From a virus (lineage: Duplodnaviria > Heunggongvirae > Uroviricota > Caudoviricetes): 54,083 nucleotides of DNA. This document shows, one piece after another, positions 1,445 through 52,384 of this stretch (its first letter is position 1; each line of letters begins with the position of its first letter). The DNA is taken from IMG/VR virus record IMGVR_UViG_2534682338_000012, positions 1 to 54,083 of that record, one strand, 5' to 3'. The position numbers were made by a program, and so were the translations under genes. Under the pieces are notes generated by a model. The model was not told the DNA's origin. It did not search any database and worked only from the letters and a program-made list of their open reading frames with translations.

Positions 1445-1458
1445 TTTAAATCAATAAG

Positions 1459-16359: not shown

Positions 16360-16431
16360 ATCTATAGATGACACTCCTCGTTCGTATAAGATAATGCTAA
16401 ATTACTATTAGCTTAATCACAGGAGACGGAC

Positions 16432-17295
16432 ATGGAAAGAGGTGTGGTATTTAGTGCATGCGAATTACTTAAAACCGAGGATGGAAAAGGCATCCGTACA
16501 GGTAAATGGATTAGTCAATTAGAAATAAACTATCTATGTCTTTATTGGGATAAACTAGTTTCACCCACTAATAATATTATACATACAGCATTAAATAACG
16601 AGGATGAATTAGAAAAATGTGGATTGCTAACCAGACCTGTATATAGACATCATGGTTGTTTTGATGGCCAATATATGGCTGATTTTTATGCTGAAACTCA
16701 TGCCAAAACAATAGATATACTTAGGCATGCGGATTCTTCTGTCGATTGGCGCATGCATTTTTTAAGTGACCAAATAAACTTGGTGCCTGAATTATCTAGA
16801 ACCTCAGAAGTGATACGTTTTGAGCTAGCAAATTTATTACCCGTTCCCACAGAAGATGTGCACCTACATGATATTCTTGATTTCAAGGAAAGAAGAAAAC
16901 CTGAATTAATCGCTTTACATGAATATCTTGATGAGCTTTACTTGGAAATAAAACGTTCTGGTGATATCAATCTTCAGAAAGCAAAAGCTCTTTCTAATCT
17001 TAAACAAGCAATAAAGGATATTGAACGCTTAAATTGTGAAGTGTGGAAAAGTCCAATAAAATTTAGCATCTCTACTTCCTTTGAGTTCGATTTTTCACAA
17101 ATATTTACTCTGGCGGGAACTGTTTTATCTATGTCAGTAGATTATCCTTATAATGTTATTGGAGGGGTAAGTAGTTTTGCTTATTTTTTGGGAGGATGCA
17201 TAAAAATAAAGCCACAATTTCAACAAGTGTTATCATTAGGTAATGATAAATTAGTTTACATAAGCAAAGGAAAATCGGAGGGTATTATTTCCTGA
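16432..17295 (+). CDS. hypothetical moron protein (287 aa) between lysis and packaging modules
   Basis: AGGAG RBS, AT-rich by eye, no recognisable domain. Confidence 0.6.
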   Translation: MERGVVFSACELLKTEDGKGIRTGKWISQLEINYLCLYWDKLVSPTNNIIHTALNNEDELEKCGLLTRPVYRHHGCFDGQYMADFYAETHAKTIDILRHADSSVDWRMHFLSDQINLVPELSRTSEVIRFELANLLPVPTEDVHLHDILDFKERRKPELIALHEYLDELYLEIKRSGDINLQKAKALSNLKQAIKDIERLNCEVWKSPIKFSISTSFEFDFSQIFTLAGTVLSMSVDYPYNVIGGVSSFAYFLGGCIKIKPQFQQVLSLGNDKLVYISKGKSEGIIS

Positions 17296-17371
17296 TTTTT
17301 GATTCTCATAATCAATGAATGTTTTTTGTGAATATACTTATTTTAACCATATAAATAATCAAGGTAATAAA

Positions 17372-17722
17372 GTGCCTCCTCGTATCCCGAAAGCCTGCCG
17401 TGCTCGAGGTTGCCGTAATACCACCACAGACCCGTCAGGCTACTGCGAAAGCCACAAAAGCGAAGGCTGGAAGCAATACAAGCCAGGCCAGTCCCGACAC
17501 CAGCGCGGTTATGGTGCGAAATGGGATTTTATCCGTGAACGTGTGCTCAAGCGTGACAAAGGCCTGTGTCAGTTGTGTTTGCGTGCCGGTGTGGTGCGCG
17601 AGGCGAAAACCGTTGACCACATCATCCCTAAAGCACATGGCGGCACTGATGCCGACAGTAATCTGCAGAGTCTGTGCTGGCCGTGTCATAAGGCGAAGAC
17701 GGCCCGTGAACGGTTGAAGTAA
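17372..17722 (+). CDS. HNH endonuclease (packaging-associated)
   Basis: CxxC...H-N-H motifs (CQLCLRAG...VDHIIPKAHGGTDADSNLQSLCWPCHKAK); start uncertain (GTG). Confidence 0.8.
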   Translation: MPPRIPKACRARGCRNTTTDPSGYCESHKSEGWKQYKPGQSRHQRGYGAKWDFIRERVLKRDKGLCQLCLRAGVVREAKTVDHIIPKAHGGTDADSNLQSLCWPCHKAKTARERLK

Positions 17723-32101: not shown

Positions 32102-32649
32102 TGAGGACGATTGAAGCCATGCAGCGACAACTTCTCGGCCTGATTGGGCGGGCAGTGGTGAAAAGCATCAGTGCCGCCACGAAATGTCAGACCGTGGATG
32201 TGTCCCTGATTGCCGGTGAACCCAAAGCCGGGGTTGAACATCTTGAACCCTACGGTTTTACCGCAAGGGCAAACAGCGGTGCGGAAGCGGTGGTGTTGTT
32301 TCCGGATGGCGACCGTTCTCATGCGGTGGTTGTTACGGTGTCGGACCGGCGCTACCGCCTGAAAGGGCTGCAAACGGGTGAGGTGGCTGTCTATGACGAT
32401 CAGGGGCAGTCTGTGACGCTGACCCGGGAGGGGATCGTGGTGGACGGTGCAGGGAAAACGATCACGTTTCGCAATGCACCTGAAGCACGTTTTGAAATGG
32501 ATCTGGAAGTGACCGGACAGGTGAAAGACCTGTGCGACTCCGGCGGCACCACCATGTCAGCGATGCGGCTTGCCTATAACGGGCATCGTCACAGAGAGAA
32601 CGGTCAGGGCAGTAACACCGACAAACCTGATAAAGCGATGGAGGCATGA
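32101..32649 (+). CDS. baseplate assembly protein V / spike
   Basis: 182 aa, canonical position. Confidence 0.7.
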   Translation: MRTIEAMQRQLLGLIGRAVVKSISAATKCQTVDVSLIAGEPKAGVEHLEPYGFTARANSGAEAVVLFPDGDRSHAVVVTVSDRRYRLKGLQTGEVAVYDDQGQSVTLTREGIVVDGAGKTITFRNAPEARFEMDLEVTGQVKDLCDSGGTTMSAMRLAYNGHRHRENGQGSNTDKPDKAMEA

Positions 32650-33073
32650 TGGAACTGTGGCTGACGGTGAACGGTAAACGCACCTGCGCCAGCGCACCGC
32701 TGGATCCGCTGACCCGCGCCGTGGTGATTTCCCTGTTCACCTGGCGGCGGGCGGAGCCTGATGACAATGCCGACGTCCCGATGGGATGGTGGGGGATACC
32801 TGGCCTGCGGTACAGAATGACCGTTACGGCTCCCGACTGTGGTTGCTTCAGCGCAGCAAACTGACCAATCAGCTGGTGCAGACGGTAAGGGGATATATCC
32901 GCGAATGCCTGCAATGGATGACTGATGACGGCGTGGTGTCCCGTATTGATCTGGATATCCGCCGCACCGGGATTAATGAGCTGGGTAACAGTATCACCCT
33001 CTGGCGTCGTGATGGACCAGTAATGATTTCTTTTGATGATCTGTGGAGTGCGATAACGCATGGCGGACAGTGA
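32646..33073 (+). pseudogene. baseplate protein (Mu gp46-like) interrupted by frameshift in G-run
   Basis: ORFs 32646-32864 and 32786-33073 overlap in different frames; junction at GGTGGGGGAT where one extra G would give continuous ...DVPMGWWGDTWPAVQNDRY... Confidence 0.5.
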
Positions 33074-34118
33074 ATTTCAGCGCCCGACGCTGGCAGAAAA
33101 TATCAGTATGCTCCGTAACGATTTATTCGCCAGGCTGGACGTCAGCGACACGCTCCGGCGCATGGATGAAGACGTGCGGGCAAAGGTGTATGCGGCGGCG
33201 CTGCATACGGTCTACGGTTACATCGATTATCTGGCAATGAATATGCTGCCTGACCTGTGCGATGAGTCCTGGCTGGCGCGACATGCTGCGATGAAACGGT
33301 GTCCGCGCAAGGGGGCCACGGTTGCCAGCGGGTATATGCGCTGGGAAGGTGTCAGCGATGGCCTGAAGGTGACTGCCGGGAGTGTTATTCAGCGCGATGA
33401 CCTGGTGCAGTACACGACAACTGACGATGCAATCAGCTCCGGTGGTGTCCTGCGCGTGCCGATCGCCTGCTCAAGTGCAGGTGCGGTCGGTAACGCTGAC
33501 GACGGTACGGCATTAATCCTGGTCACGCCGGTGAATGGTCTGCCGTCTTCCGGTGTGGCTGACACCCTGACAGGCGGATTTGATACTGAAGAGCTGGAAA
33601 CGTGGCGCGCCCGCGTCATTGAGCGGTATTACTGGACGCCGCAGGGCGGGGCTGACGGGGACTATGTCGTCTGGGCTAAAGAAGTGCCTGGCATTACCCG
33701 CGCATGGACATACCGACACTGGATGGGAACGGGGACTGTCGGTGTGATGATTGCCAGCAGTGACCTGATTAATCCCATTCCGGAAGAATCAACGGAAACG
33801 GCGGCAAGACAACATATCGGGCCACTGGCCCCGGTGGCAGGCTCTGATTTGTATGTGTTCAGGCCGGTGGCACATACGGTGGATTTTCATATCCGTGTGA
33901 CGCCGGACACACCGGAAATACGGGCTGCCATCACCGCGGAGTTGCGTTCGTTCCTGCTGCGTGATGGTTATCCGCAGGGAGAACTGAAGGTGTCACGTAT
34001 CAGTGAAGCGATTTCCGGTGCGAACGGGGAATACAGCCATCAGTTGCTTGCACCGGCGGACAATATCACCATTGCGAAAAATGAACTGGCGGTTCTGGGG
34101 GCGATTTCATGGACGTGA
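33060..34118 (+). CDS. baseplate J-like protein
   Basis: 352 aa, canonical position. Confidence 0.75.
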
Positions 34119-34693
34119 CAAACGATGATTACATCCGTCTGTTGTCAGCACTGTTGCCGCCCGGTCCGGCGTGGTCAGCCAGCGATCCGGCGATTGCCGG
34201 TGCGGCACCGTCATTAACCCGTGTTCATCAGCGTGCGGATGCCCTGATGCAGGAGCTGGATCCGCGCACCACCACCGAACTGATAAACCGCTGGGAGCGT
34301 CTGTGCGGCCTGCCGGATGAATGTATTCCGGCAGGGACGCAGACCCTTCGCCAGCGTCAGCAACGGCTGGATGCGAAGGTTAACCTGGCGGGCGGCATCA
34401 ATGAGGATTTTTACCTTGCACAGCTTGCTGCCCTGGGCAGACCAGACGCCACCATCACGCGATACGACAAAAGCACGTTCACCTGCTCATCTGCCTGTAT
34501 TGACGCGGTGAATGCGCCGGAATGGCGGTATTACTGGCAGGTCAACATGCCAGCCGCCACCAACACCACCTGGATGACATGTGGCGATCCCTGTGATTCC
34601 GCGCTGCGCTTCTGGGGGGACACCGTTGTCGAGTGTGTTCTTAACAAACTCTGCCCGTCGCATACCTATGTGATTTTTAAATATCCGGAGTAA
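34109..34693 (+). CDS. tail protein (DUF2313/YmfQ-like)
   Basis: 194 aa, precedes tail fibre as in e14/Mu-type tails. Confidence 0.65.
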
Positions 34694-34696
34694 TCC

Positions 34697-35344
34697 ATGC
34701 ATCGTATAGACACGAAAACCGCGCAGAAGGATAAGTTCGGCGCGGGTAAGAACGGTTTTACCCGTGGTAACCCCCAGACCGGCACGCCTGCCACCGATCT
34801 GGATGATGACTACTTTGACATGTTGCAGGAGGAGCTTTGCAGCGTTGTGGAGGCATCCGGTGCCAGCCTGGAGAAGGGGCGGCATGACCAGCTGCTTACC
34901 GCGCTTCGTGCGCTGCTGTTAAGCCGCAAGAATCCGTTTGGCGATATCAAATCGGATGGCACGGTGAAAACAGCTCTCGAAAACCTTGGTTTGGGAGAAG
35001 CGGCAAAGAGGAATGTGGGGACAGGAGAAAATCAGGTACCGGATATGAACAGCTTTGGTAACTCATTGACCGCCAATGGATACCAGAAATTACCTGGGGG
35101 GATGATTATTCAATGGGGGAGTTTTTCTGTCTCACCAACCGGAGGAAGTGTTGGAACAGTTGATATAACATTACCTGTAGCTTTCCCTGCTGCTTGTCGT
35201 TCGGTAAACGCTCTTATTTCAACTAATGATCCTTCTGCCCGTTCTGTGGGCTTTGATATTGGAAGTACCAACAGAACTAAAATCAGATTTACTTACACTT
35301 CTGCTACAACAAATTCAATTTACTGGATGGCTGTGGGGTATTAA
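34697..35344 (+). CDS. tail fibre protein (constant N-terminus fused to variable segment A)
   Basis: [22 protein letters not shown]... conserved fibre N-terminus; crossover site lies inside the gene. Confidence 0.75.
34974..34999. repeat. left inversion crossover site (gix/pix-like)
   Basis: CTCTCGAAAACCTTGGTTTGGGAGAA; inverted copy at ~36832-36857. Confidence 0.55.
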
Positions 35345-35346
35345 CT

Positions 35347-35778
35347 ATGGAAAAGACATATTATTTTAATCCCTCTGATTCGGGATTTTATATTTCACCA
35401 GATAGCCAAACCATTCCTGAGAACGCTACGAAAATAAACTTTACTATTTATTCTGAGTTCGCAGGAGTTGCATGGCCTGATGGTAAAATACTTGGTTCAG
35501 ATAAAAATGGTTTTCCAGCATGGCAGGATGCGCCACCACTTACAAGCGAAGAATTAATCTCAATCGCTGAATCAAATAAACAGCGATTAGTTAATCAGGC
35601 CAACGAATACATGAACAGTAAACAATGGCCTGGTAAAGCGGCGATTGGTCGTCTGAAAGGTGAGGAACTGGCGCAATATAATTTGTGGCTGGATTATCTG
35701 GACGCACTGGAACTGGTCGATACTTCCAGTGCGCCAGATATTGAATGGCCTACTCCTCCGGCAGTTCAGGCCAGATGA
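35347..35778 (+). CDS. tail fibre assembly protein (for variant A)
   Basis: 143 aa, C-terminal LWLDYLDALELVDTSSAPDIEWPTPP typical of Tfa chaperones. Confidence 0.7.
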   Translation: MEKTYYFNPSDSGFYISPDSQTIPENATKINFTIYSEFAGVAWPDGKILGSDKNGFPAWQDAPPLTSEELISIAESNKQRLVNQANEYMNSKQWPGKAAIGRLKGEELAQYNLWLDYLDALELVDTSSAPDIEWPTPPAVQAR

Positions 35779-36352
35779 CATCCGGCGCGGTACTGGTATC
35801 TGTTGCCGTCACCGCGTCAATGTAATCCAGCACAGTGTTAAGTCGGGTGGTCTCTGCCTGCATCAGCTTCCGCCCGGCCTGCAATTTCAGTTGAATCAGA
35901 CTAATGGAAGCCATTGCAGTATCAATCAGTGACTGACGTTGTGCTTCTGCCGCGTCTACTGCGGCGCTATGCTGTGTCTCAGTATCCGTCACCCATTTCT
36001 CACCATCCCATTTATCGTATGGCGTTAACGGGGCGATAGTGGTTGTTTTTTCGGGGTAATCACCCGGAGTTGTGATTTCTTTGGCGTCTCCCGTTTCGGT
36101 GTTATAGACGATTTCACCGCGATGGTCTGGTACATATTCCCATGAGTTAAAATCTGCAGAGCGGCAGATTGCATAACCAGCTTTGTAGGTGCCTGGAGCA
36201 TCTAAACAGGAATAAGCCGGAATGCCGACACCAACAGCAAGATATTCAGTTGAAGCTGAAATATACTCCCGACTCATGACGTCAAAGTTATAAACAGTAA
36301 TTTCTCCTGCCATAGTGGCAATTAATTCACTGTTTAATTCTGCGTTATTCAT
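35750..36352 (-). CDS. tail fibre assembly protein (for variant B)
   Basis: 200 aa, C-terminal LNTVLDYIDAVTATDTSTAPDVIWPELP Tfa signature, opposite strand within invertible segment. Confidence 0.7.
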   Translation of the reverse strand: MNNAELNSELIATMAGEITVYNFDVMSREYISASTEYLAVGVGIPAYSCLDAPGTYKAGYAICRSADFNSWEYVPDHRGEIVYNTETGDAKEITTPGDYPEKTTTIAPLTPYDKWDGEKWVTDTETQHSAAVDAAEAQRQSLIDTAMASISLIQLKLQAGRKLMQAETTRLNTVLDYIDAVTATDTSTAPDVIWPELPEE

Positions 36353-36856
36353 TATGCAGCCCTCACAATATAGTTAAAAGCGACATTTCGTGGGCGTGTT
36401 TCATTCGCACCTGCAGGTTTAGTCGTTGCCGCAACAACACTACCCTCTGTAATAGCCGGGTTGGGAATTGGGTAATTATCGAAGTCAATGGCTGGAGACA
36501 GGGGCGTGATTTGTTTTAAAATCGTGGTGCCTGTAAAACTTCCCAGAGTCTGGTCGTTAGTTCGTGAAGTCCAGACTCCCCAATAGTGGTTATGACTGAC
36601 AATCGCACCGTCCTGAAGCGTTAATAATCCCCTTCCGTTATCCACTCCACGTCCGTCATCCCAGCCACGAATAAACTCACCGCGTAAATCAGGTAATTTA
36701 TTTGTCGGATAAGCCTTTGCCAGTTCCGGGTATTCTTCAGCAGAAAAAGCTGCTCCGTTGCATTTCAGCCAGCCTGTTGGCGGAGTGGCTGAAGGCCACG
36801 GAACAGGCACACCAACGGGTAATGCTGAGCCTTCTCCCAAACCAACGTTTATGAAA
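36352..36856 (-). CDS. alternative tail fibre C-terminal segment (variant B, currently unfused)
   Basis: Minus-strand ORF ending at crossover site; would fuse to fibre N-terminus after inversion. Confidence 0.6.
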
Positions 36857-36857
36857 A
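36832..36857. repeat. right inversion crossover site
   Basis: TTCTCCCAAACCAACGTTTATGAAAA, inverted relative to left site (shared TTCTCCCAAACCAA core). Confidence 0.55.
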
Positions 36858-36911
36858 TGCAGAAATAACGAGCAAATGGCATCATTCCTGCTTTTGTCAG
36901 GGAGATCTACC

Positions 36912-37466
36912 ATGCTTATTGGCTATGTACGTGTGTCAACAAATGACCAGAACACAGATCTACAACGTAATGCGCTGAACTGTGCAGGATGCGAGCTGAT
37001 TTTTGAAGACAAGATAAGCGGTACAAAGTCCGAAAGGCCGGGACTGAAAAAACTGCTCAGGACATTATCGGCAGGTGATACGCTGGTGGTCTGGAAACTG
37101 GACCGACTGGGGCGCAGTATGCGGCATCTTGTCGTGCTGGTGGAGGAGTTGCGCGAACGAGGCATCAACTTTCGTAGTCTGACGGATTCAATTGATACCA
37201 GTACCCCAATGGGGCGCTTTTTCTTTCATGTGATGGGTGCCCTGGCTGAAATGGAGCGTGAACTGATTGTTGAAAGAACAAAAGCTGGACTGGAAGCTGC
37301 TCGCGCACAGGGACGAATTGGTGGACGTCGTCCCAAACTTGCACCAGAACAATGGGCGCAGGCCGGGCGATTAATTGCATCAGGCGTTCCTCGCCAGAAG
37401 GTGGCGATCATCTATGATGTTGGTATATCGACACTGTATAAGAAGTTTCCGGTCGGAGATAAATGA
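36912..37466 (+). CDS. pin: serine DNA invertase (Pin/Gin/Hin family)
   Basis: MLIGYVRVSTNDQNTDLQ... catalytic Ser in YVRVST, C-terminal HTH; immediately right of invertible segment. Confidence 0.9.
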   Translation: MLIGYVRVSTNDQNTDLQRNALNCAGCELIFEDKISGTKSERPGLKKLLRTLSAGDTLVVWKLDRLGRSMRHLVVLVEELRERGINFRSLTDSIDTSTPMGRFFFHVMGALAEMERELIVERTKAGLEAARAQGRIGGRRPKLAPEQWAQAGRLIASGVPRQKVAIIYDVGISTLYKKFPVGDK

Positions 37467-37572
37467 AACCGTAGCACGTCGTATGCAAGAAGATCGTGCT
37501 GCGGTTTATGCTTATCACTTAAAGACTCAAAAATTAGGTGAGTAACGGACCGGGGACATAGCTCCTTTTTTC

Positions 37573-38394
<822 letters not shown>

Positions 38395-38926
38395 CTAACC
38401 CTTTGAATTTACATAGCGCAAAAAGATACCTTTCCTCATAATGTGAGCTAATTTTATGTTTCGTTTGATGATCGGGTCGGTCTCGAAACCCGTAGCCACG
38501 TCATATGCAAGAACGTGCTACGACTGGCTGGTGAACTTCCGATAGTGCGAGTATTGAATGATTTCCAACTGTTATCGATTTTGCGTATTTTTAGCATGAG
38601 AGGATTCGCACCACCTCCCACCGACCATCTATGACAGTATGCCACTATCTATAGGACTGCTTTGTGCCAGCAGCGGACGGTATGTTTGTTAATTGGCGGA
38701 TTTTCTTGAGTAAATCAATAGGATAGGTGAAAAATTAATCAAAAGTTTATGGCCCTACTACCCATCAAACTGATAGAGCCTCTCCCTGGATGGACGACAA
38801 AATCAGATATTGGAAAGTCAATAATTAATACAAGCACCAACATTTCTTGAAAAGGTTATTTATAAAATGAAATAATTTTTAGCCATGTTATAGTGATGTA
38901 TTAACTTCAGATAAAGAGATTATAGG

Positions 38927-41809: not shown

Positions 41810-41855
41810 ATTCGTAATGCGAAGGTCGTAGGTTCGACTCCTATTATCGGCACCA
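41810..41855. repeat. attR of prophage / attL of P4-like element (partial tRNA-Thr 3' end)
   Basis: 46-bp copy of tRNA 3' end lacking the 5' half. Confidence 0.7.
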
Positions 41856-42019
41856 TCACCTAGTTTTCCCAAGTCAACCCACATCAACAAAATCATTTAA
41901 AAACATATATATTACGTTATTTTCATACGTTTGAGGTCAACCCTTGTCTCTTGAAATCAACACGCGGTTGGGGGCACAATCAGGGGCATGTTCTGTTCGG
42001 TCTAGGAAATGTGCCCCCA

Positions 42020-43210
42020 ATGATGCTGAATGCCCGCAAGGTTGAAGCTGCGAAAGGAAAAGAGAAGAGCTACAAGCTGTTTGATGGAGGTGGCCTATAC
42101 CTTCAGGTCGAACCTAATGGCTCGCGTTACTGGCGTATGAAATACCGTTTTGCTGGTAAAGAGAAACGATTGTCCTTTGGTGTTTATCCAACAGTCACAC
42201 TTGCTGATGCCAGACAAAAACGAGAAGACGCGAAGAAACTACTCGCAGCAGGTGAAGATCCCGGCGAAGTCAAAAAAGCCAAAAAGCAGGCTTTAAATGC
42301 AGCGATTGAGACACTTAACCCATTCAGAGAAGTGGCGTTAGAGTGGCACAAAATGAAATCACCCAAATGGTCTGAGGGCTATGCTTCCGACATCATTGAG
42401 GCATTCGAGAAAGACATTTTCCCGCATATTGGGCACAGACCTATAGCTGATATTCAGCCCCTTGAACTGCTTGAAGTTCTGAGGTTGATAGAAGCTCGAG
42501 GCGCTATGGAGAAAGCGAAGAAAGTCCGTCAGCGATGCGGTGAAGTTTTTCGCTATGCCATCGTAACGGGTAGGGCAATCTACAATCCGGCACCGGATCT
42601 TGCCAGTGCGATGCAAGGACATGAAGCAGTCCACTATCCATTCCTCAAAGCCAACGAACTACCGGAGTTCTTTAATGCCCTTAATTCTTATTCAGGAAGT
42701 CCAATTGTATTGTTGGGGGCGCATTTACTTATCCTGACAGGTCTACGAACTGGAGAACTACGAGCAGGTGAGTGGCGAGAGGTGGATTTTGATAATGCGG
42801 TGTGGGAGATCCCAAAAGAACGTATGAAAATGCGTAGGAGCCATATTGTCCCGTTGTCAAAACAAGCATTATCCCATCTCAAAAGTTTGAAAGAACTAAC
42901 TGGGAACTACCCGCTGATGTTCCCTGGACGCAACGATCCTAGCAAATTTATGAGTGAAGCAAGCATTAATCAGGTGTTTAAACGTATTGGATATGCAGGG
43001 CGTGTTACGGGGCATGGTTTCAGGCATACGATGAGTACAATCCTACATGAGAAAGGATTTAACAGCGCTTGGATTGAAACCCAGCTTGCTCATTCGGACA
43101 AAAACTCTATTCGTGGAATTTATAACCATGCCCAATATCTCGAAGGGAGAAGAGAAATGATGCAATGGTATGCTAATTATTTATCTGAGCTAATTGGTAC
43201 TCATAAATGA
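42020..43210 (+). CDS. P4-type tyrosine integrase
   Basis: N-terminal LNARKVEAAKGKEKSYKLFDGGGLYLQV (DUF4102-like arm-binding domain), C-terminal HGFRHT...Y catalytic region; track start is TTG, ATG chosen. Confidence 0.85.
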   Translation: MMLNARKVEAAKGKEKSYKLFDGGGLYLQVEPNGSRYWRMKYRFAGKEKRLSFGVYPTVTLADARQKREDAKKLLAAGEDPGEVKKAKKQALNAAIETLNPFREVALEWHKMKSPKWSEGYASDIIEAFEKDIFPHIGHRPIADIQPLELLEVLRLIEARGAMEKAKKVRQRCGEVFRYAIVTGRAIYNPAPDLASAMQGHEAVHYPFLKANELPEFFNALNSYSGSPIVLLGAHLLILTGLRTGELRAGEWREVDFDNAVWEIPKERMKMRRSHIVPLSKQALSHLKSLKELTGNYPLMFPGRNDPSKFMSEASINQVFKRIGYAGRVTGHGFRHTMSTILHEKGFNSAWIETQLAHSDKNSIRGIYNHAQYLEGRREMMQWYANYLSELIGTHK

Positions 43211-44031
43211 ATATTTTAAAAATTAATAATACTGATTCTCTGCTCAGAGATTACTACCAGTTGGATGAAGCTTCAGAAAAAATTGGTTGTAGTGAAAAGG
43301 ATATACTCTGGTTTGCCAGAGAACGAGATGTAGAGCTATGCATGGAATTCCATGATGATGAGTATGATGTTTCATGTGGTTTGAAGATTGATGGTCAAAT
43401 GGATGAGTTCTTATCTAATCTGAAATATTTACCACGAGATAGAAATGGCAATATTATGTTGTCAGACTTAAGTTCTATAAGAATCCCTGATGAAGATAAT
43501 TTAATTGATAAAAATGGTTTTATTCGATGTTTCATATCCGGTTTATGGGCTGTTGATTATGAATATAAAGATCTGTTAGTTAAGCATGAGGGGCAACCGG
43601 ATTCTTGGCCTATTCATTTTCTACTGGCGGGTACGCCTAATATAAATTGTAAGGTAATTCTTTATGTAAATTATGATGAAAAAGAAAATTATTATCTTTT
43701 TGAGGTTTTGTGGATTACAAAGGTACAGATTCAAAAATTCATTGATATAGTCTTATGCGAACAAAAGCGGATAAAAAACGCCAATAAATATAAATCACAA
43801 TCTGAGGCGCAAAAACAAAAACATGCTGTTCCTCGAGCTGAAATACTCATGGCTATTATTTCGCTCTATCATCGTGATATGAGGCTAAGAAGAGAGAGTC
43901 CAGCAGCGATAGCTGATTATCTTTTTCAACATGCCAGTGAGTTCTGGCCTAAGACCGGAGAACCGCCTTTGAGCTATGATACTGTTGTTAGTTTGCTACG
44001 TAGTTGCATGAAAAACATTAAGTTTAACTAA
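43207..44031 (+). CDS. hypothetical protein (274 aa), AT-rich
   Basis: Start overlaps integrase stop (ATGA), no recognisable domain. Confidence 0.5.
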   Translation: MNILKINNTDSLLRDYYQLDEASEKIGCSEKDILWFARERDVELCMEFHDDEYDVSCGLKIDGQMDEFLSNLKYLPRDRNGNIMLSDLSSIRIPDEDNLIDKNGFIRCFISGLWAVDYEYKDLLVKHEGQPDSWPIHFLLAGTPNINCKVILYVNYDEKENYYLFEVLWITKVQIQKFIDIVLCEQKRIKNANKYKSQSEAQKQKHAVPRAEILMAIISLYHRDMRLRRESPAAIADYLFQHASEFWPKTGEPPLSYDTVVSLLRSCMKNIKFN

Positions 44032-44156
44032 ATATTAACAATTATTGTGGCTAATGATTTTGGATTTTTTTCATTAGTCACATTTTTCTCATTTATAACC
44101 TATGTTTTAATTTTCCGTGTTGAAGCCAATAGACTTAGATAAACGGAGAATGATGA

Positions 44157-44447
44157 ATGTTATCTAAACATGATAATACTACTTTGCAACGACCTTCAAT
44201 GGATTCTCTGATCGATATGAAGTTTATTACTTCCGATTGTTTATTAAGTGATAAATGGATTTATCGATTGATTTCTCTGAATCGCTTTCCAAAACCTATA
44301 AAAATAGGTCGGATGTCACGATGGCGCGCTGCTGATTATTATAAGTGGCGAGATGGGTTTGAAGAAAACTCAGGTCAACATTTTGAGGGAATGAGAAATA
44401 AGGCAAGAGCAATTAATAAAGGGAATAGATTATCACCTACTCCCTAA
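44157..44447 (+). CDS. AlpA-family phage regulatory protein
   Basis: C-terminal region resembles AlpA HTH (RLISLNRFPKPIKIGRMSRWRAADYYKW); true start may be internal (~44217). Confidence 0.55.
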   Translation: MLSKHDNTTLQRPSMDSLIDMKFITSDCLLSDKWIYRLISLNRFPKPIKIGRMSRWRAADYYKWRDGFEENSGQHFEGMRNKARAINKGNRLSPTP

Positions 44448-44479
44448 GCCTTAATTGATAGTTAGTAATATTTAACTGA

Positions 44480-44653
44480 TTAGCCTTTAGGGTCAATCCC
44501 GCGTGATTGGAGTTCTTTGCGTAAAATTCTTTTAATCCAAGTTGCCAACGCGCTATCTCCATCTTTGCGCATTTCGTTTTCGAGTTGCAACCTAAAATCG
44601 TCGGTAAGACGCATTTGGAATGGTGGAGAACGTTTCTCTTGTGGTGTTGACAT
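44480..44653 (-). CDS. small ribbon-helix-helix-like protein (57 aa), not in ORF track
   Basis: Minus-strand ORF MSTPQEKRSPPFQMRLTDDFRLQLENEMRKDGDSALATWIKRILRKELQ...; beta-strand/helix/helix pattern; two copies of CATGGTAATTACC palindrome at and upstream of start. Confidence 0.4.
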   Translation of the reverse strand: MSTPQEKRSPPFQMRLTDDFRLQLENEMRKDGDSALATWIKRILRKELQSRGIDPKG

Positions 44654-44784
44654 GGTAATTACCCTAGAATATGATGACTACATGGTAATTACCATTGTAA
44701 GTATAGTTCGCTTGTAAAAGCAATGCCCGATTGTGCGGGAACACAAATCGGGCATTTAACCAACCGTTATAAGAGGTAACGAAG

Positions 44785-44961
44785 ATGGCTAAACAGAAGT
44801 GTACCTGGTTATTTGCGGCGATCAACCGCAGTCAACGCAATGCCCGTCCTGTGATGTTAAGGATCACCGCAGATAACGAGCGGTCAGCGCGGCGCAGACT
44901 TGCCCCGGACTATGTACTGAGCTTTGCCGGGCGCATTCCCTGCGGAGGTGAACATGCGTAA
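44785..44961 (+). CDS. small protein (58 aa), possibly Icd-like
   Basis: AAGAGG RBS; MAKQKCTWLFAAINRSQRNARPVMLRITADNERSARRRL...; translationally coupled to next gene; family assignment from memory, low certainty. Confidence 0.35.
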   Translation: MAKQKCTWLFAAINRSQRNARPVMLRITADNERSARRRLAPDYVLSFAGRIPCGGEHA

Positions 44962-45313
44962 TTATCCGCACCCCGGCGAACGCTGGCAGCATGAACGTGG
45001 CTGGACGGTCACGATTATCCGATTAATAGAAGCCTCGCCCTCTGTGGCGCTGGTTAATCCTGAATTCAGCTGTGAAGTGCTGATACGTCATGACAGCGAC
45101 AACCAGCTTTCTTCCTGCCCTCTGGCATGGTTTGAACAGCGGTATACGCGCCTGTTTGATGTACCGCTCTTTAAGCCTGCACCAGCTCCTGCAGGCGGTA
45201 GTGGTTCCGGCCCGCTGACACTGCATCCGTCTGTGCTATTTATCCGCTGGCGGGAGCGTAGCATATGGCGTTCTGCTGAGCCTGACGACGGTCACTATTC
45301 AAAGTTTCTCTGA
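44954..45313 (+). CDS. hypothetical protein
   Basis: Start MRNYPHPGERW after GGAGGTG, overlapping upstream stop. Confidence 0.5.
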   Translation: MRNYPHPGERWQHERGWTVTIIRLIEASPSVALVNPEFSCEVLIRHDSDNQLSSCPLAWFEQRYTRLFDVPLFKPAPAPAGGSGSGPLTLHPSVLFIRWRERSIWRSAEPDDGHYSKFL

Positions 45314-45344
45314 CAAAATACCGCTGAAAACGGAGTAATCCACG

Positions 45345-45629
45345 ATGAATATTTCAAACGGGCACAACGGTGCTCAGGGCCACACTTTGCCTGAAAAACA
45401 CAATACCGGTGCTTTTGCCTATGGGTTGTCAGAGGACAGTTTCGGAAAGCTGACCCGCGCAAGAAATGCCTGCGACATGCTCCAGCTTCTCTTTTCTGAA
45501 TACCCGTCTCAGGCCGGAGCACTGGACGCTGGCTGTGCGCATGGTGTCGCCGCGCTGATGGAGTACCTGCTGGCAGATTTGACGGATATTGCACACAGTT
45601 GCGCACTGATTGAAGGAGGTGCCAGATGA
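45345..45629 (+). CDS. hypothetical protein
   Basis: 94-aa ORF in operon upstream of primase. Confidence 0.45.
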   Translation: MNISNGHNGAQGHTLPEKHNTGAFAYGLSEDSFGKLTRARNACDMLQLLFSEYPSQAGALDAGCAHGVAALMEYLLADLTDIAHSCALIEGGAR

Positions 45630-46009
45630 ACCAGCCGCAGGTTTCCATTTTCCCGGCAGAAATGACCACCGCGCTTTACCGGCGGGCTATTGCTTCAGCA
45701 TGGCGGCAGAAAATGCTGAACGAAACTGGCAGTGATCAGTATGGTCCGCACAGCCTGACGGTGGAGCGTATTGAAATGGCCATTGCGCTGCATATCGAGT
45801 GCGTACTGATTAACGAGTACGGCGAAGTGCAGGGCGCCGCTACCGCGCTGGCACTGCTGACTGACATGCTGGAGCCGTCACTGCTGACCGCGCCGCCGGT
45901 ACTGACCGCGCGCGGCTGTGAAGTGATGGCGGAGATGTACCGCACGCTTCCGGCGGCCTTTGATGACTTCTGCAGTACCGGTGTGACGTTGTATGAGGGG
46001 GAAGTATGA
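45626..46009 (+). CDS. hypothetical protein
   Basis: 127-aa ORF, stop-start overlap with neighbours. Confidence 0.45.
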   Translation: MNQPQVSIFPAEMTTALYRRAIASAWRQKMLNETGSDQYGPHSLTVERIEMAIALHIECVLINEYGEVQGAATALALLTDMLEPSLLTAPPVLTARGCEVMAEMYRTLPAAFDDFCSTGVTLYEGEV

Positions 46010-48678
46010 CAATACGGACGGTTACGCAGATTTCAGCCGCCGCACGGGGGAAATGGCCCGTTATTCTGCAGATGCTGCGTATTGATGTACCTGAAAACGG
46101 CAGGCACGGTCCCTGCCCGAAATGTGGGGGCAAGGATCGTTTTCGCCTTGATGACCTTGACGGGCGCGGGACGTGGATCTGCAGCCAGTGTGGCAATGGT
46201 GACGGTCTGGATCTGGTTAAGCTCGTAACCGGTTACAGCGTCAGAAAGGCTGCGCAGGAGGTGGCGCAGGTGCTTAATGTGCCGGATGTGCAGGAACTGC
46301 CTGTTAAGCCTGCCAGACAAAAAGCCCCTAAACGAGACATGGGTCTTACCGTGGCGGCGCTGATGAAAGAGAGCCACACGGGAGAAAGCGCCTATCTGAC
46401 AGGAAAAGGGTTCGCCGGATACCCGGCCTCTCTGACCGGAAGCGTGCAGCATATCAGCGGTAAGGATTTTCCTGCCGGTTCCCTGCTGTTACCACTCACG
46501 ACCAACACCGGAGCCGTGACCGGTGCACAGCTTATCGCCCCGACGGGTGAAAAAAGCATACTGCCCGGCAGCACGATGAAAGGCGCGTTTGTGTCGCTCA
46601 GCCCGTTACCGTCTGAACCACCGGTACAGGTGGTGATTACCGAAGGTTACGCTACGGCGCTGACGGTAAGCCAGCTCACTGCCGGATGCGTAGTGGCTGC
46701 CATATCTGCGGGCAACCTGCCCAATGTGGCGCAGTCGCTGCGGGCACGCTGGCCTGAGGTAAAAATTATCATCGCCGGTGATAACGATTTTCAGGACGGG
46801 GGTGAGAATCCCGGCAGAGCCTTTGCTGAACGGGCGGCAAAAGCTGTTGGCGGCTGGATGACGCTGCCACCAGGAGAGATTAAGGCTGACTGGAATGACT
46901 TTCATCGGGAGCACGGTATTACCCGTGCCCGTGAAGCCTTTCGCAACGGTCTGGTACTGTGCGGGGAAGGCCGCACGCAACTGCCGCACGGGTTCCGTCT
47001 TACCCAGGAATATCTCTGGTATGAAAAGCAGGTACAGCGCAACGGTGAGACGGAGATCCAGAACGTCAAAATATGCAGCCCGCTGCGCGTGACGGCAATT
47101 ACCTGCGATGCCGATGGCGGTAACTTCGGACGACTGCTGGAATGGGAAGATACGTGGGGTGAGTGTCGCCGCTGGGCGATGCCAATGGAAATGCTGAGCG
47201 GCAGTGGTGAGGAACTGCGCCGGGTTCTGCTGGTTAACGGGCTGTCTTATATCAGCACCACCGGTGAGGCACGCGCACGCCTGATGGAATATATCTCACT
47301 GTGTAAACCGGAACGCCGCGTGACCTGCGTCAGTCGTACTGGCTGGCATGGTCAGGTTTACGTCCTGCAGGATGAGGTCAGCGGTGAAGGTGCAGAGGGT
47401 GTCATTCTCCAGACCACTTCCGTGCAGGGGCGTGATTTCCGCGTGTCGGGCACAACAGAGGAATGGCGGGAGCATGTATCCCGCTACTGTACCGGCAACT
47501 CCCGCGTGGCATTTGCTGTCAGCCTGGCCTTTGCTGCACCACTGTTACGGCTGGTTGGTATGGACGGCGGCGGCTACCACCTCAAAGGGGAATCGACAGA
47601 CGGTAAGACCACCACCATGAAAGCGGCAACCTCCGTCTGCGGCGGGCCTGACTACTGGCAGACATGGCGGGCCACCGGCAACGCGCTGGAGGGATGCGCC
47701 AGCCGCCGTAACGATGCCGCCATGATGCTTGATGAGATCCGGGAAGTTGACGGACGCGAGGCAGGCAATATCGCCTACATGCTGGCAAACGGTCAGGGCA
47801 AGGGCCGTGCCGGTACGGACGGTGAGCTGCGTACCCGTAAGCAGTGGCGCCTGTTGTTCTTTTCAACTGGCGAGTTGTCTCTGACCGAACATGCGGCAAA
47901 GGCCGGTGAGCGTACTTTTGCCGGGATGGAAGTCAGGATGATCCAGATCCCCAGCGATTCCGGGAAGTTTGGCGTTTTTGAGGAGCTGCACGGCTTCGAC
48001 AGCGGCAAGGCTCTGGCAGAGCATCTTGAATGGGCCACGTCCTGCTACTACGGTTCGCCGTTCCGGGAGTGGCTGAAAGCACTGACCGCTGATCTTAACG
48101 GACTAACGGCACAGGCAAAATCGCTGATGAAGGAATATGCTGCCGCCCTGACTCCGAAAGATGCAGGCAATCAGGTGGGCCGGGCTGTGAACCGCTTTGC
48201 ACTGGTGGCGATGGCAGGTGAACTGGCAACCCGTCTGGGTATCACCGGCTGGCCTGAGGGTGAAGCACTGCGGGCAACCCGCGTCTGCCTGAACGCATGG
48301 CTGAAAGATCGCGGGCACACCGCCAATCAGGAAGATATCGCCGCACTGGAGCAGGTTCGCAGTTTCTTTACCGCGAATCAGTACAGCCGCTTTGCAGACT
48401 GGTATGACGAGCGCAACCGCCCCGGCAATATGGTGGGCTGGCGCAGGGTGGAGAAAGGCAGTACCGCGCAGGGCACGGAAGCTGTCACTACGTTCTATGT
48501 CATGCCGTCCGGCTGGAAAGAAATCTGCAGGGGATTTGACCCGCGCAAGGTGGCGCGTCTGTGCGCAGATCGTGGATACCTGCTGCCCTCCACTGATGGC
48601 AAACTCCAGACAACCATTCGCCCGCCAGAGATGAATCCCCGCAGGCTCTATGTCTTCAACAGCGAGGTGCCGGGTTAA
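46006..48678 (+). CDS. P4 alpha-like primase-helicase
   Basis: 890 aa; N-terminal zinc-binding CPKCGG...CSQCGNGDG, TOPRIM-like acidic region, central P-loop (GESTDGKT) helicase region. Confidence 0.85.
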   Translation: MTIRTVTQISAAARGKWPVILQMLRIDVPENGRHGPCPKCGGKDRFRLDDLDGRGTWICSQCGNGDGLDLVKLVTGYSVRKAAQEVAQVLNVPDVQELPVKPARQKAPKRDMGLTVAALMKESHTGESAYLTGKGFAGYPASLTGSVQHISGKDFPAGSLLLPLTTNTGAVTGAQLIAPTGEKSILPGSTMKGAFVSLSPLPSEPPVQVVITEGYATALTVSQLTAGCVVAAISAGNLPNVAQSLRARWPEVKIIIAGDNDFQDGGENPGRAFAERAAKAVGGWMTLPPGEIKADWNDFHREHGITRAREAFRNGLVLCGEGRTQLPHGFRLTQEYLWYEKQVQRNGETEIQNVKICSPLRVTAITCDADGGNFGRLLEWEDTWGECRRWAMPMEMLSGSGEELRRVLLVNGLSYISTTGEARARLMEYISLCKPERRVTCVSRTGWHGQVYVLQDEVSGEGAEGVILQTTSVQGRDFRVSGTTEEWREHVSRYCTGNSRVAFAVSLAFAAPLLRLVGMDGGGYHLKGESTDGKTTTMKAATSVCGGPDYWQTWRATGNALEGCASRRNDAAMMLDEIREVDGREAGNIAYMLANGQGKGRAGTDGELRTRKQWRLLFFSTGELSLTEHAAKAGERTFAGMEVRMIQIPSDSGKFGVFEELHGFDSGKALAEHLEWATSCYYGSPFREWLKALTADLNGLTAQAKSLMKEYAAALTPKDAGNQVGRAVNRFALVAMAGELATRLGITGWPEGEALRATRVCLNAWLKDRGHTANQEDIAALEQVRSFFTANQYSRFADWYDERNRPGNMVGWRRVEKGSTAQGTEAVTTFYVMPSGWKEICRGFDPRKVARLCADRGYLLPSTDGKLQTTIRPPEMNPRRLYVFNSEVPG

Positions 48679-48699
48679 GGCTTTGCGTGAGTCTTATTT

Positions 48700-48900
48700 A
48701 TTAAGGGTAACAGGTGAAACAGGTGGAACAACCGTATTTTACAGGGCTGAATCTGTTCCACCTTCTGAAATAGTGAGGTGGAACAGATGTAACGCCAGCC
48801 AATCCGCTGTTCCACCTTGTTACCCGCGATGTTCCACCGGTGCAGTGTATATAAATGCTTTATAAAACAAATGGGTAACACATGTTTCACCTGTTACACC
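48700..48900. repeat. ori/crr-like iteron cluster
   Basis: At least five copies of GGTGGAACA/TGTTCCACC in both orientations plus inverted GTAACAGGTGAAAC...GTTTCACCTGTTAC. Confidence 0.5.
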
Positions 48901-49078
48901 GCATCAGGGACATAAAGCAGACTGAAACAGAGGGCATTTTTATCTGGCTGGCTTTCATAGCCACGTCTGAATAACCGCAAGCGCCCGTTGTACCAGCCAC
49001 CACACACTGAGCACCGATAGTGTGCTTGTGTCAGCCACGACACAATTGACGTAACGAACCAACCCGACAGGAGAAGTC

Positions 49079-49822
49079 ATGAACAACACCGCAGTGAATA
49101 ACAACCTTTCCACTTTTCCGGCTGTAACGCAGCGGGCACTGGAAACCATGAACACAGCCAGAAACGCATGGCTTGAAGCACGTCGTCAGCAGAAAGCGGC
49201 AGCGGATAATATTGCGACAATCCGCCAGCGTCGCGCTGAAATGGAAGCCACGACGAACACACTGAATGAGGAGTGGCGCACGCTGTTTCGTGAAAGTCAG
49301 GGCGTGGTCTCAAAGGAAATGAAAAAACTGCGCACGGAAATTGCGCTGGGACGAGAAACTCTTGAGGATTTTGATGAGCTGCTGGAGGCTCAGGAAAGCG
49401 AAAATGCACTTTTGCCGCAGAAAGCTGCGGAATTAGCCGGAAAGTATATCCACGCGCATAACATCCTTGTGGATATTCGCGCAAAACAAATCTGGGAAGA
49501 TTTTATGCAGTCGCATGGAAAAGCGCTTATTCAGACGCTGAGCCTGCTTAAATCCACAATGGGCCGGGAAGCCAGTGCCGTTGTGGGTGTGGTGAATTCA
49601 GTTAATGACCCGGACACAGTGCTGAAAGACTTTATTCATAAACATATCACCAGACCGGCTCTGGCTAACGATGCGATGCCTGAGCAGGACCCGGTGTTTA
49701 AACTGGCGGGAGTTGCCCCGGATTATGCGGCGCGTCTGGATTTCAGTAATCAACTCTCTCCGGCAGCTATGCATAAAATTAAGGTTCGTCAGGAACTTGC
49801 TGAGAAGGAGAAAGCAGTATGA
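49079..49822 (+). CDS. possible Sid-like capsid size determination protein
   Basis: 247 aa, alpha-helical/coiled-coil character, immediately upstream of Psu; size close to P4 Sid. Confidence 0.35.
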   Translation: MNNTAVNNNLSTFPAVTQRALETMNTARNAWLEARRQQKAAADNIATIRQRRAEMEATTNTLNEEWRTLFRESQGVVSKEMKKLRTEIALGRETLEDFDELLEAQESENALLPQKAAELAGKYIHAHNILVDIRAKQIWEDFMQSHGKALIQTLSLLKSTMGREASAVVGVVNSVNDPDTVLKDFIHKHITRPALANDAMPEQDPVFKLAGVAPDYAARLDFSNQLSPAAMHKIKVRQELAEKEKAV

Positions 49823-50370
49823 CGGCCCGAGGCACGCCTGACCAGGCACTTACCAGTTTTCGGAATGCCCGTATTCTGTGGGCCGGACATAATGAGAGCC
49901 GAAAAGCCGTTGAACAACAGATAACATCTCTCCTCGCTGCCACAGAAAAACCAGCAGATTATGCCCGACAGCTCGAATTACTGCGGGAACGTCTGGATGT
50001 GCTGAAATGGCAAATTAACTGTGCTGCGCGCGAATGCATTTACTCGCAGCATTTACTGATGGAGGCCTGCACAGAAGCCGCTCTCAGCAATTTTATGCAG
50101 GCGAATGGGGCAGCCCTGACATCTGCACTGGCTCCGTTCCTGAAGGGGCGCGGAGGGGTTGACGTTGCGTCCCGTATATTACGCAGTGCTCTGGTTCGCC
50201 AGCTGGCAATAACACCGCCTGAAATTGCCGGGGATTATCGTGAGATCCTGGATGAATCCGGTTTGATGCCTGACCCCGGGATGATTCGTGATTGCCAGGG
50301 GTCTTACACCCCGGCACAACATCTGCGTTTTCAGCAACGCCTGAATGACATTAACGATATACAGGAGTGA
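49819..50370 (+). CDS. psu: polarity suppression protein Psu
   Basis: 183 aa; blocks recalled from P4 Psu (LKWQINCAAR, FMQANGAALTSALAPFL, YTPAQHLRF). Confidence 0.65.
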   Translation: MTARGTPDQALTSFRNARILWAGHNESRKAVEQQITSLLAATEKPADYARQLELLRERLDVLKWQINCAARECIYSQHLLMEACTEAALSNFMQANGAALTSALAPFLKGRGGVDVASRILRSALVRQLAITPPEIAGDYREILDESGLMPDPGMIRDCQGSYTPAQHLRFQQRLNDINDIQE

Positions 50371-50375
50371 TATTA

Positions 50376-50648
50376 ATGGCACTTAAATGTCCGGAATGCG
50401 GTACAGTTGCACACGCCAGAACAGCAGCCTATGAAGCTCCGTCAGTTAAACGCTCGTGGTATCAGTGCCAGAATCTGGAATGTTCCTGCACATTTACGGC
50501 ACTGGAGAGTGTGGATAAGATAATCATGAAACCCCGGCGCAATGAACAGCTATCAGACAAAGCACAATCCCCGGAAAAACAACAGCAAACGCTCAATCGC
50601 TATGGCTCCGCGTCAAAACTGTCAAGCCGTCAGCAGATTCCTGTCTGA
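50376..50648 (+). CDS. Ogr/Delta-family zinc-finger late activator
   Basis: CPECG...AHARTAAYEAPSVKRSWYQCQNLECSCTF matches Ogr C2C2 motif. Confidence 0.8.
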   Translation: MALKCPECGTVAHARTAAYEAPSVKRSWYQCQNLECSCTFTALESVDKIIMKPRRNEQLSDKAQSPEKQQQTLNRYGSASKLSSRQQIPV

Positions 50649-51177
50649 TTAGAAAAAAACGCCCACGTAATCCTGGTCGAGTACCGGGATTTTTAACACC
50701 TTTTCCCTGGCTGGCCTGAGAGCGCATGAGTGCATGTCTATGGCGCATGAAAATGCATGAGCCTTATGCACCTTTTTTGAGGCGAAAACCTTTGTGTGGT
50801 GGTATCTGAGACGATTTATGGCATGCATGAAAACCAGTCTGTTAAGCGAAGCGGGCAGGCGTGCGGGGCTGCCCGCGATAGCACTGAAATCAACAGGTAA
50901 AACTATTTTTTATTAGTAGTGTAAACTGGGAGCGAACGGACTCTGTCATGCTGTATCATCCTGTAATGATCAATCTCACTGGTGTCTGTATAGATGTCAA
51001 CCAGTTTCGACGGCTGTGTCTAACTTAAAATTAGAGCTTAATCAAGTTTTTCCTCGAGAATACTTTTAAAAGACAATGAGTTATGAGAAAGTGGAGGCTG
51101 TCACGTTGGTCATATGTAACACTCCACGTAATCTTAATCGCTTTGTAAATGTTGAAGTTAATTAATAGGGAAAACTG

Positions 51178-52137
51178 ATGCTAACCAGGGCTGAAAATAT
51201 AAGAAAAATCACAAGCTATTTAGCTATTCTCTCAAGAGAGGTTGAGATTAGTGCCTCCCTCAATCTTTTGGATATCAACGTTCAAGCGGAATCTTTTTAT
51301 AGAGATTTCTTAAACTTATGTTATGGATATAATTTAAGAAATACCAATAGTGAAGAGCAAAACTACCAAGCAATAGATCTTGCTGATGAAGATCGGAAGA
51401 TTGCTATACAAGTAACTTCAACTTCTGACTTGGGAAAAATTAAGAATACAGTTGATGGATTTATAAAAAGTAAGCAATATGAAAAATATGATAGACTAAT
51501 TGTACTGAATATAACTGAAAAGAAAAAGCACAGATTGAAAGAGTATGGAATAGCCGGGTGCTATGTAATTAATATCAAAGATGATGTATGGGATTATAAG
51601 GATATAATTAGAAAGATAAACGATTTGAATGATTGTGATATATCAACAATATGCTCATTTTTGGAACGTAATATTAATACTAAAGCTGCTGATAAACCGC
51701 CGAAAGAAGTCACAACTATGTTTGCGATGATTGAATTATTGAGTGATGATGCTCACCCATTGGCAGGAAATGGATTTATTGAAGAGCCTAATCCTGAAAA
51801 TAAAATATATAAAAGATTTTCAGATTATTCAGAGCGGTTGATTGGCTTATATACTGGGTTAGCTCCATTATATAGTGGGATATTTAAGTCAATAAAAGAA
51901 CAGAGCGATATTGGTATCGTAAGGTACCAAAAGATGAGTTTGTATTTAGAGTCATTTAGTGATAAGGTCTTAAGAAGCCATGGTGGAGATCCTATCTTGG
52001 CGCTTAATTATTTAAAAGAATATTTTTCTAAACAACTGAGCCAGAGAAATGTAGATTACGATGAAACAGCTATCAAATTTTTCTTAATTGAGAATTTAAT
52101 TGCATGTAACGTCTTTCCTAATTCGGAGATTCTTTGA
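51178..52137 (+). CDS. hypothetical cargo protein (319 aa), candidate effector/specificity component
   Basis: AT-rich ORF, first gene of tightly coupled three-ORF cassette after P4-like late genes. Confidence 0.55.
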   Translation: MLTRAENIRKITSYLAILSREVEISASLNLLDINVQAESFYRDFLNLCYGYNLRNTNSEEQNYQAIDLADEDRKIAIQVTSTSDLGKIKNTVDGFIKSKQYEKYDRLIVLNITEKKKHRLKEYGIAGCYVINIKDDVWDYKDIIRKINDLNDCDISTICSFLERNINTKAADKPPKEVTTMFAMIELLSDDAHPLAGNGFIEEPNPENKIYKRFSDYSERLIGLYTGLAPLYSGIFKSIKEQSDIGIVRYQKMSLYLESFSDKVLRSHGGDPILALNYLKEYFSKQLSQRNVDYDETAIKFFLIENLIACNVFPNSEIL

Positions 52138-52384
52138 TGTTAAGTTTTTTTTCGAAAGATGAGGATTTGACAAAATCCCCTCCTGTTGTAGGGGCTAAAA
52201 TTCTTAATTTATTTGACGAAACAAAAAAGAAAAAATTAGTATTTTCGATTTAGCAAAAGAATTAAAGAAAAACAACTCTCTAGGAGTGCGTGCAATTTAT
52301 TTTGGAATGGTCTTTCTTTATACTCTTGATCTTATCGATTTCGATGAGCCATATGTGATAAATAAAAATGTTAAGAATAAATAA
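52137..52384 (+). pseudogene. small middle ORF (~80 aa if contiguous) interrupted by frameshift in A-rich tract
   Basis: ATG overlaps upstream stop (TGATG); frame 0 gives 38 aa then stop; adjacent frame continues ...ISIFDLAKELKKNNSLGVRAIYFGMVFLYTLDLIDFDEPYVINKNVKNK to overlap the next gene. Confidence 0.35.

Follow-up and report, generated by a model that had tools for sequence, protein, structure and literature searches.

Organisation of the tail-fibre locus

The DNA analysed, a single stretch of 54,083 nucleotides referred to below as the window, carries a prophage of ~40 kb that encodes a Mu-like contractile tail and occupies the tRNA-Thr gene (thrW) next to proA as its integration site. 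Its head, tail and baseplate module is complete-looking and collinear with that of an annotated prophage of strain M8 at 98.4% identity, and the genes upstream of the tail-fibre gene are of the Mu baseplate type, with products that contain the Baseplate_J (gp47) and Phage_Mu_Gp48 (gp48/YmfQ) domains. The fibre gene itself, together with the other features of the locus and the repeats that bound the prophage, is set out in Table 1.

Table 1. Coordinates of the tail-fibre locus, its recombination sites and the prophage boundaries within the window
Feature	Coordinates	Strand	Details
Prophage-bounding repeat	1399-1445 and 41810-41856		47 bp, 3' end of thrW
Fibre ORF	34697-35344	+	215 aa; passes through left site
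Constant fibre N-terminal part	34697-34985	+	aa 1-96; outside segment
Left crossover site (pixL-type)	34974-34999		CTCTCGAAAACCTTGGTTTGGGAGAA; halves CTCTCGAAAACC TT GGTTTGGGAGAA, core 34986-34987
Invertible segment	34986-36845		1,860 bp, both central dinucleotides included
Variable fibre C-terminus now expressed	34986-35344	+	Pfam Gp53-like_C aa 131-215, E=3e-18
Tfa of facing cassette	35347-35778	+	143 aa; Pfam Caudo_TAP E=4.7e-30; PHROG 188, tail fibre assembly
Tfa of silent cassette, TfaE-like	35750-36352	-	200 aa; Pfam Caudo_TAP E=4.8e-30
Silent alternative fibre C-terminus	36352-36845	-	Pfam Collar E=8e-16; PHROG 523, tail collar fibre
Right crossover site (pixR-type)	36832-36857		TTCTCCCAAACCAACGTTTATGAAAA; halves TTCTCCCAAACC AA CGTTTATGAAAA, core 36844-36845
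Leader with ATG start codons outside segment	36846-36885	-	MMPFARYFCIFIN...; ATG at 36885, beside pin
pin, small serine DNA invertase	36912-37466	+	184 aa; starts 55 bp right of right site
Presumed recombinational enhancer (Fis-binding)	36930-37001		5' end of pin; placed by homology only; ~95 bp from right site

The beginning of the fibre protein is strongly conserved, its first 101 residues being identical to those of K-12 StfP at all but one position (100/101), and matches to PHROG tail-fibre families extend over residues 1-102. Beyond the left site the segment is occupied by two cassettes on opposite strands, each consisting of a fibre C-terminus and its Tfa, and the two tfa genes are convergent with a 29-bp overlap. 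On the minus strand the Collar-containing ORF (36352-36885) passes through the right site in its turn. When 34986-36845 was inverted in silico the fibre frame was kept, and the present product of 215 residues with a gp53-like tip was replaced by one of 260 residues with a tail-collar tip, a fusion that is annotated as a 783-bp 'tail fiber protein' in natural genomes carrying the flipped state. Neither the constant 5' portion of the fibre gene nor the late transcription that enters it from upstream belongs to the segment, and the cassette that faces them is therefore completed as a full fibre and co-transcribed with its own Tfa. In annotation the locus should be treated as a single fibre gene whose 3' end is invertible, instead of being divided into four 'tail' genes, and assemblies of this strain may show orientation-dependent discrepancies.

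The adjacent invertase gene is intact. Its product comprises a Resolvase domain (aa 3-135, E=1.5e-51) followed by an HTH_7 domain (aa 138-180, E=1.4e-12), belongs to PHROG 125 (DNA invertase, E=1.6e-96), and is identical to K-12 PinE at 177 of 184 positions (96%) and to Mu Gin at 143 of 193. Comparison with the Gin structure 3UJ3 returned an E-value of 1.4e-93, with 78% identity to the crystallised Mu protein, and the alignments to both 3UJ3 and 4M6F span residues 1-181. The catalytic residues Y5, R7, S9, D64, R65 and R68 are all present, and H106 and M114 are the wild-type residues, whereas the crystallised Gin has valine at position 114. Mutations of Gin at these last two positions confer independence of Fis. 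As a member of this family Pin would be predicted to depend on Fis and on negative supercoiling. No other invertase homologue was found in the window. A consensus scan for promoters and terminators (34000-38500) gave matches at chance level, none of them upstream of pin.

These results bear out the structural description offered by the initial annotation, which had proposed a segment of ~1.85 kb, bracketed by inverted 26-bp sites and holding two alternative fibre C-termini with their respective Tfa proteins on opposite strands, beside an invertase of the Pin/Gin family. The gene content agrees, both 26-mers lie in opposite orientation exactly where they had been placed, 1,860 bp separate the outer limits of the two crossover dinucleotides, and the invertase gene is complete. 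Both the ORF at 34697-35344 and its behaviour on in-silico inversion accord with the further proposal that the plus-strand variant is at present fused to the constant N-terminus, and the active-site mutation that had been named beforehand as evidence against the proposal is not seen in Pin.

Crossover sites, putative enhancer and evidence for inversion

Both sites exhibit a layout of 12+2+12 bp, as in the gix sites of Mu, and their central dinucleotides, TT and AA, are one dinucleotide read in opposite orientations. After reverse-complementing one of the two, 21 of the 26 positions agree. The sites contain the strongest inverted repeat in a 6-kb neighbourhood; its two 20-nt arms (34981-35000 and 36831-36850) show 95% complementarity and are separated by 1,830 nt. 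A search of the window with the invertase-site pattern TTCTCNNAAACCNNGGTTTNNGAGAA, allowing up to three mismatches, returned two matches only, namely these two sites, against an expectation of 0.01; two matches were obtained in none of 100 shuffles. Each is identical to its counterpart in the e14 element of K-12 (left site, L006:4779; right site, L006:6606).

Two other kinds of rearrangement were considered and rejected on the basis of these sites. A multiple-inversion system, whether of the shufflon type or like Min of p15B, requires more than two sites, and no further site was detected in the 54-kb window at the same threshold of three mismatches. Inversion mediated by RecA between homologous fibre genes is at odds with a shared repeat of merely 15-20 bp, which moreover fits the invertase-site consensus and has the inversion breakpoints exactly at it.

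The remaining cis-acting element expected of such a system, a recombinational enhancer, could be placed by homology. The P1 record places the Cin enhancer at nt 19-90 of cin. The part of pin homologous to it, 36930-37001, keeps two G-N13-C cores (GTGTCAACAAATGAC and GTGCAGGATGCGAGC) and differs from K-12 at 2 of 72 aligned positions. Its putative distance from the right site is comparable to that of the Hin enhancer, which is located ~100 bp from the proximal site and likewise within the invertase gene (PMC3798978). A synonymous-site comparison of codons 7-30 with the remainder of nine invertase genes gave no significant difference for most pairs, with uncorrected p values of ~0.03-0.05 for three of the nine, among which two are non-independent. 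As conservation here is inseparable from constraint on the protein, the enhancer is a candidate placed by homology.

A survey of 5,426 complete E. coli genomes found the cassette pair in its present orientation, at a coverage of at least 80%, in 14 genomes and, with the in-silico flip as query, in the flipped orientation in 23. Both orientations are thus represented among orthologous loci whose sites are identical or almost identical to those in the window. The most direct evidence was provided by two independent pairs of near-clonal isolates whose members have the segment at one chromosomal position but oppositely oriented: HCP5S3_I2 and LCP30S3_I5, isolated from pig faeces in the UK and with chromosome lengths 1 bp apart, and JE86-ST05 and JE86-ST02. 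Within each pair, the flanking 8 kb to the left and to the right of the segment shows no differences at all, while the DNA between the repeats (1,830 or 1,822 bp) consists of exact reverse complements. One mismatched position of the repeat, directly outside the central dinucleotide, remains with the flank in all members of the pairs, so that the crossover is confined to the 15-bp perfect repeat starting at the central TT; judged from these alignments, that placement is as predicted for cleavage at the central dinucleotide. It follows that orthologous copies do invert, and that they do so at exactly these repeats. The invertases of the inverting orthologues are 97-98% identical to Pin; in HCP5S3_I2 and LCP30S3_I5, the sites of which are the same as those in the window, the figure is 179 of 184 residues. 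The prophage of this pair (L002/L003) has an IS3 inserted in ymfQ, from which it is apparent that inversion continues even in a defective prophage.

Published work on the K-12 element and its relatives is in accord with these observations. That PinE inverts the e14 segment is experimentally established: whole-genome sequencing and PCR showed both orientations present in single-colony cultures of an MG1655 derivative (PMC4272514), and by qPCR ~30% of e14 segments were inverted in the wild type, whereas a pinE mutant had no inverted ones (PMC12529663). Switching of tail-fibre alleles at 26-bp sites has also been described in other E. coli prophages (PMC4134206).

The copy in the window, the orientation of which is known from a single assembly, would on this basis be predicted to invert as well. 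It might alternatively be a frozen relic in which repeats and cassettes persist although inversion has ceased, for instance because the enhancer is defective, because pin is not expressed or because the prophage as a whole has decayed. Such a state would be compatible with that single recorded orientation and with the failure of the consensus scan to recognise a promoter for pin, and decay is hinted at by the baseplate gene gp46, which on comparison with three related prophages appears to have been split through the loss of 1 nt from a run of G residues at ~32791. Two other single-base differences in homopolymer length occur within 24 kb, and the gp46 frameshift is for that reason possibly an assembly error. 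Set against a relic are the full-length Pin with every catalytic residue in place, crossover sites identical to the functional sites of K-12, an enhancer-homologous stretch almost unchanged from that in K-12, and orthologues with nearly the same invertase that flip between near-clonal isolates, the IS-disrupted prophage included. Loss of inversion in the window's copy is accordingly considered very improbable, and a functional switch remains the preferred reading.

Proposed mechanism and biological role

The mechanism of such a switch can be proposed from what is established for the invertase family. Pin dimers would bind both 26-bp sites, which a Fis-bound enhancer at the 5' end of pin would assemble into a synapse. 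Cleavage of all four strands at the central TT/AA, a 180-degree rotation of subunits and rejoining would then leave the 1,860 bp inverted. On the precedent of the G segment of Mu and the C segment of P1, a population of lysogens could thereby release particles of two receptor specificities, which would constitute a bet-hedging switch of host range. The term 'host-range switch', as used in the initial annotation, is the one that would customarily be carried over from these two segments, and we know of no e14-type segment for which a change of host range has been demonstrated. Should the gp46 deletion be true, no infective particles would be formed and the switch would be without host-range consequence in this strain; the copy of the prophage in the window may not be making infective particles.

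A different role for the segment has been advanced by the authors of PMC12529663, who described the function of PinE inversion as one that 'is not clear' and proposed that it serves against phages in the lysogen. They report that an inverted e14 P segment encodes a chimeric protein, StfE2, which starts from an ATG beside pin, outside the segment, and blocks adsorption of T2. The window contains the elements for an equivalent arrangement. Its leader reads through the right site into the silent cassette and is in frame either way, giving an ORF of 177 aa at present and one of 132 aa in the flipped state; the same arrangement is found in K-12 stfE and corresponds to the 'StfE/StfE2' ORFs of that study (PMC12529663). 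If the switch were mainly a device of this kind, inversion would put the other C-terminus behind the leader, and the resultant StfE2-like protein would block adsorption of superinfecting phages. Conservation of the leader ORF in frame with either cassette speaks for such a role, as does the presence of two defence genes directly downstream of pin; the continued inversion of orthologous segments in clearly defective prophages, such as that with IS3 in ymfQ, points the same way, as does the T2 result obtained with e14 in K-12.

Against this, the tip from which an StfE2 analogue would be made shares only ~30% identity with the variable part of K-12 StfP (38/125), so that T2 blocking is not transferable to it, and the scan of 34000-38500 detected no promoter-like site for the minus-strand leader ORF, matches to the consensus being at chance level. 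The claim for K-12 itself stems from one study in which over-expression was used (PMC12529663). Switching of the virion fibre, by way of contrast, fully explains an architecture in which the constant N-terminus follows the baseplate genes and each cassette has a chaperone of its own. A mainly defensive function for the switch is considered unlikely. It is equally unlikely that the leader ORF is expressed in the lysogen and that inversion toggles two truncated fibre-tip proteins masking different outer-membrane receptors. Were that so, the locus would represent a programmable superinfection-exclusion device, the specificities of which, both tips being unlike those of K-12, would differ from the StfE2/T2 case.

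Relationship to e14 and other site-specific inversion systems

The part of the initial annotation that did not stand is one of omission: it failed to recognise that the segment is the same as one already characterised, the P segment of e14. Both 26-bp sites are base-for-base those of the K-12 element, the gene order ymfQ-stfP-tfaP-tfaE-stfE-pinE is common to the two, and in both the leader starts at an ATG beyond the right site; YmfQ is identical at 188 of 194 positions, and across flanks, sites and pin the identity is 93-96%. On these grounds the locus is very probably a P segment of the known e14 type, that is, a tail-fibre switch operated by a serine invertase, Pin, of the Gin/Hin/Cin family. 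The P segment and PinE of the cryptic prophage e14 were reportedly described by Plasterk and van de Putte in 1985.

The differences from K-12 are concentrated within the segment. While the Tfa of the silent cassette is identical to K-12 TfaE at 171 of 200 positions, that of the facing cassette matches TfaP at only 70 of 149; the plus-strand tip has diverged from StfP as described above, and the collar tip of the silent cassette has diverged from the StfE type in its distal third. Judged by these alignments, both receptor-binding tips are alleles other than those of K-12, in keeping with the cassette mosaicism that tail fibres usually show. The surroundings differ as well: e14 is a 15-kb remnant at icd, whereas the prophage in the window is apparently full length and lies at thrW, and downstream of pin the window has PD-T4-3 and a kinase where e14 has mcrA. 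That the window might hold K-12 e14 itself is ruled out, since the two elements differ in where they are integrated, in size and in their cassette alleles. Bounded by repeats of thrW and not located at icd, the element is a related prophage of full length that carries the same switch. The system is therefore already known, and what the window adds is an e14-family Pin switch in a fuller prophage and with a different pair of fibre-tip alleles. In K-12 the switch is known from a remnant of 15 kb, and in the window it lies in a near-complete prophage in which its host-range role is testable; beyond correct annotation the significance is small, and specialists would not be surprised by it.

Among the better-studied systems the closest likeness is to the G segment of Mu, which likewise has a constant 5' fibre part (Sc) followed by convergent cassettes of tip and chaperone (Sv-U and U'-Sv'), 26-bp sites of the same 12+2+12 layout, the gp45-48 baseplate genes upstream, and an invertase gene, gin, which like pin is located just outside the right site and reads away from the segment. 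The two nevertheless differ in that the G segment is ~3 kb long and encodes much longer fibres, in the sequences of the sites (the core of gix being TC and that in the window TT), and in that a change of host range has been demonstrated for Mu while the element in the window is known from sequence.

The C segment of P1 is inverted by Cin, a member of the same invertase family, and a stretch homologous to the annotated enhancer of cin is conserved in pin; however, the C segment is 4.2 kb long, and cin is located on its other side and reads towards it. The Min system of p15B, with six sites and many isoforms, differs from the two-site arrangement in the window. Hin and the H segment of Salmonella share with Pin the same recombinase family and the same type of site, but there the invertase is encoded inside the segment and inversion flips a promoter to switch flagellins, whereas at the locus described here the invertase is encoded outside the segment and it is coding cassettes that are swapped.

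Borders of the prophage and its tandem neighbour

The 47 bp at the 3' end of the tRNA-Thr gene, which the prophage integrase gene adjoins, recur exactly at window positions 41810-41856; the two copies mark attL and attR of a prophage of approximately 40.4 kb. The genes of the P4-like satellite lying beyond the second copy comprise an integrase, an Icd-like protein, a TOPRIM/DUF927 primase, two Psu (polarity suppression) proteins and an Ogr/Delta zinc finger, together with SMEK-domain and DUF2326 genes as cargo. An element 99.9-100% identical is present in strain VG12A2, where it occupies thrW alone, and where it carries an IS1 that is absent from the window copy.

Features located in and beside the prophage
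Feature	Window position	Strand	Remarks
tRNA-Thr (CGT)	1369-1445		Adjoins proA
DUF6236 protein (287 aa) and HNH endonuclease (135 aa)	16432-17722		Between lysis genes and terminase
Mu gp46-type baseplate gene, in two ORFs	32646-33073		Deletion near 32791
18-nt inverted repeat, 83% complementary	35688-35705 / 35814-35831		Spans tfa convergence/overlap, 35750-35778
GIY-YIG protein, PD-T4-3	37573-38349	-	Defence-model match, E=1.3e-128
Ser/Thr-kinase-domain protein, 478 aa	38927-40363	+	PD-T4-6 and mad6 model matches, E about 1e-24
P4-like satellite, second element	41857-54083		At duplicated thrW end, in tandem with prophage

Putative cargo and homopolymer differences

The stretch 15966-17607 had no match in either of the two closest annotated prophages compared, and may therefore be a variable insert (moron). 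The prophage end downstream of the invertase gene pin, to judge by its gene content, looks like a slot for defence cargo: by comparison with the cryptic K-12 prophage e14, the position of mcrA directly downstream of pin is taken here by the PD-T4-3-type and kinase-domain genes.

The two gp46 ORFs (72 and 95 aa) correspond to positions 1-33 and 34-100 of the Pfam GP46 profile, the gene being split because one nucleotide is missing from a G run that numbers five residues in the window and six in three related prophages. Either the frameshift is real and inactivates the gene, or the missing base is an assembly error at a homopolymer. T runs at 37566 and 37588 are each one T shorter than in strain M8, and taken together with the G-run deletion they suggest homopolymer errors of the type typical of long-read assemblies. 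One of the two single-T deletions falls within the PD-T4-3 gene, at its 3' end.

Sequences within and beside the invertible segment

The inverted repeat spanning the junction of the two convergent tail-fibre chaperone genes is no extra recombination site: it mirrors the homologous C-terminal ends of the chaperones (LDYLDAL and LDYIDAV).

Between the right crossover site and the invertase start, the motif ATGGCAT(C/G)AT (36875-36885) does not vary among pin, K-12 pinE and Mu gin, and provides a minus-strand ATG outside the invertible segment; in Mu, likewise, the predicted S' ORF (Mup52) starts 28 nt beyond the G-segment boundary (L007, the phage Mu sequence, 6026-6054). The motif may belong to the invertase promoter, or alternatively be a conserved start of the silent-cassette ORF.
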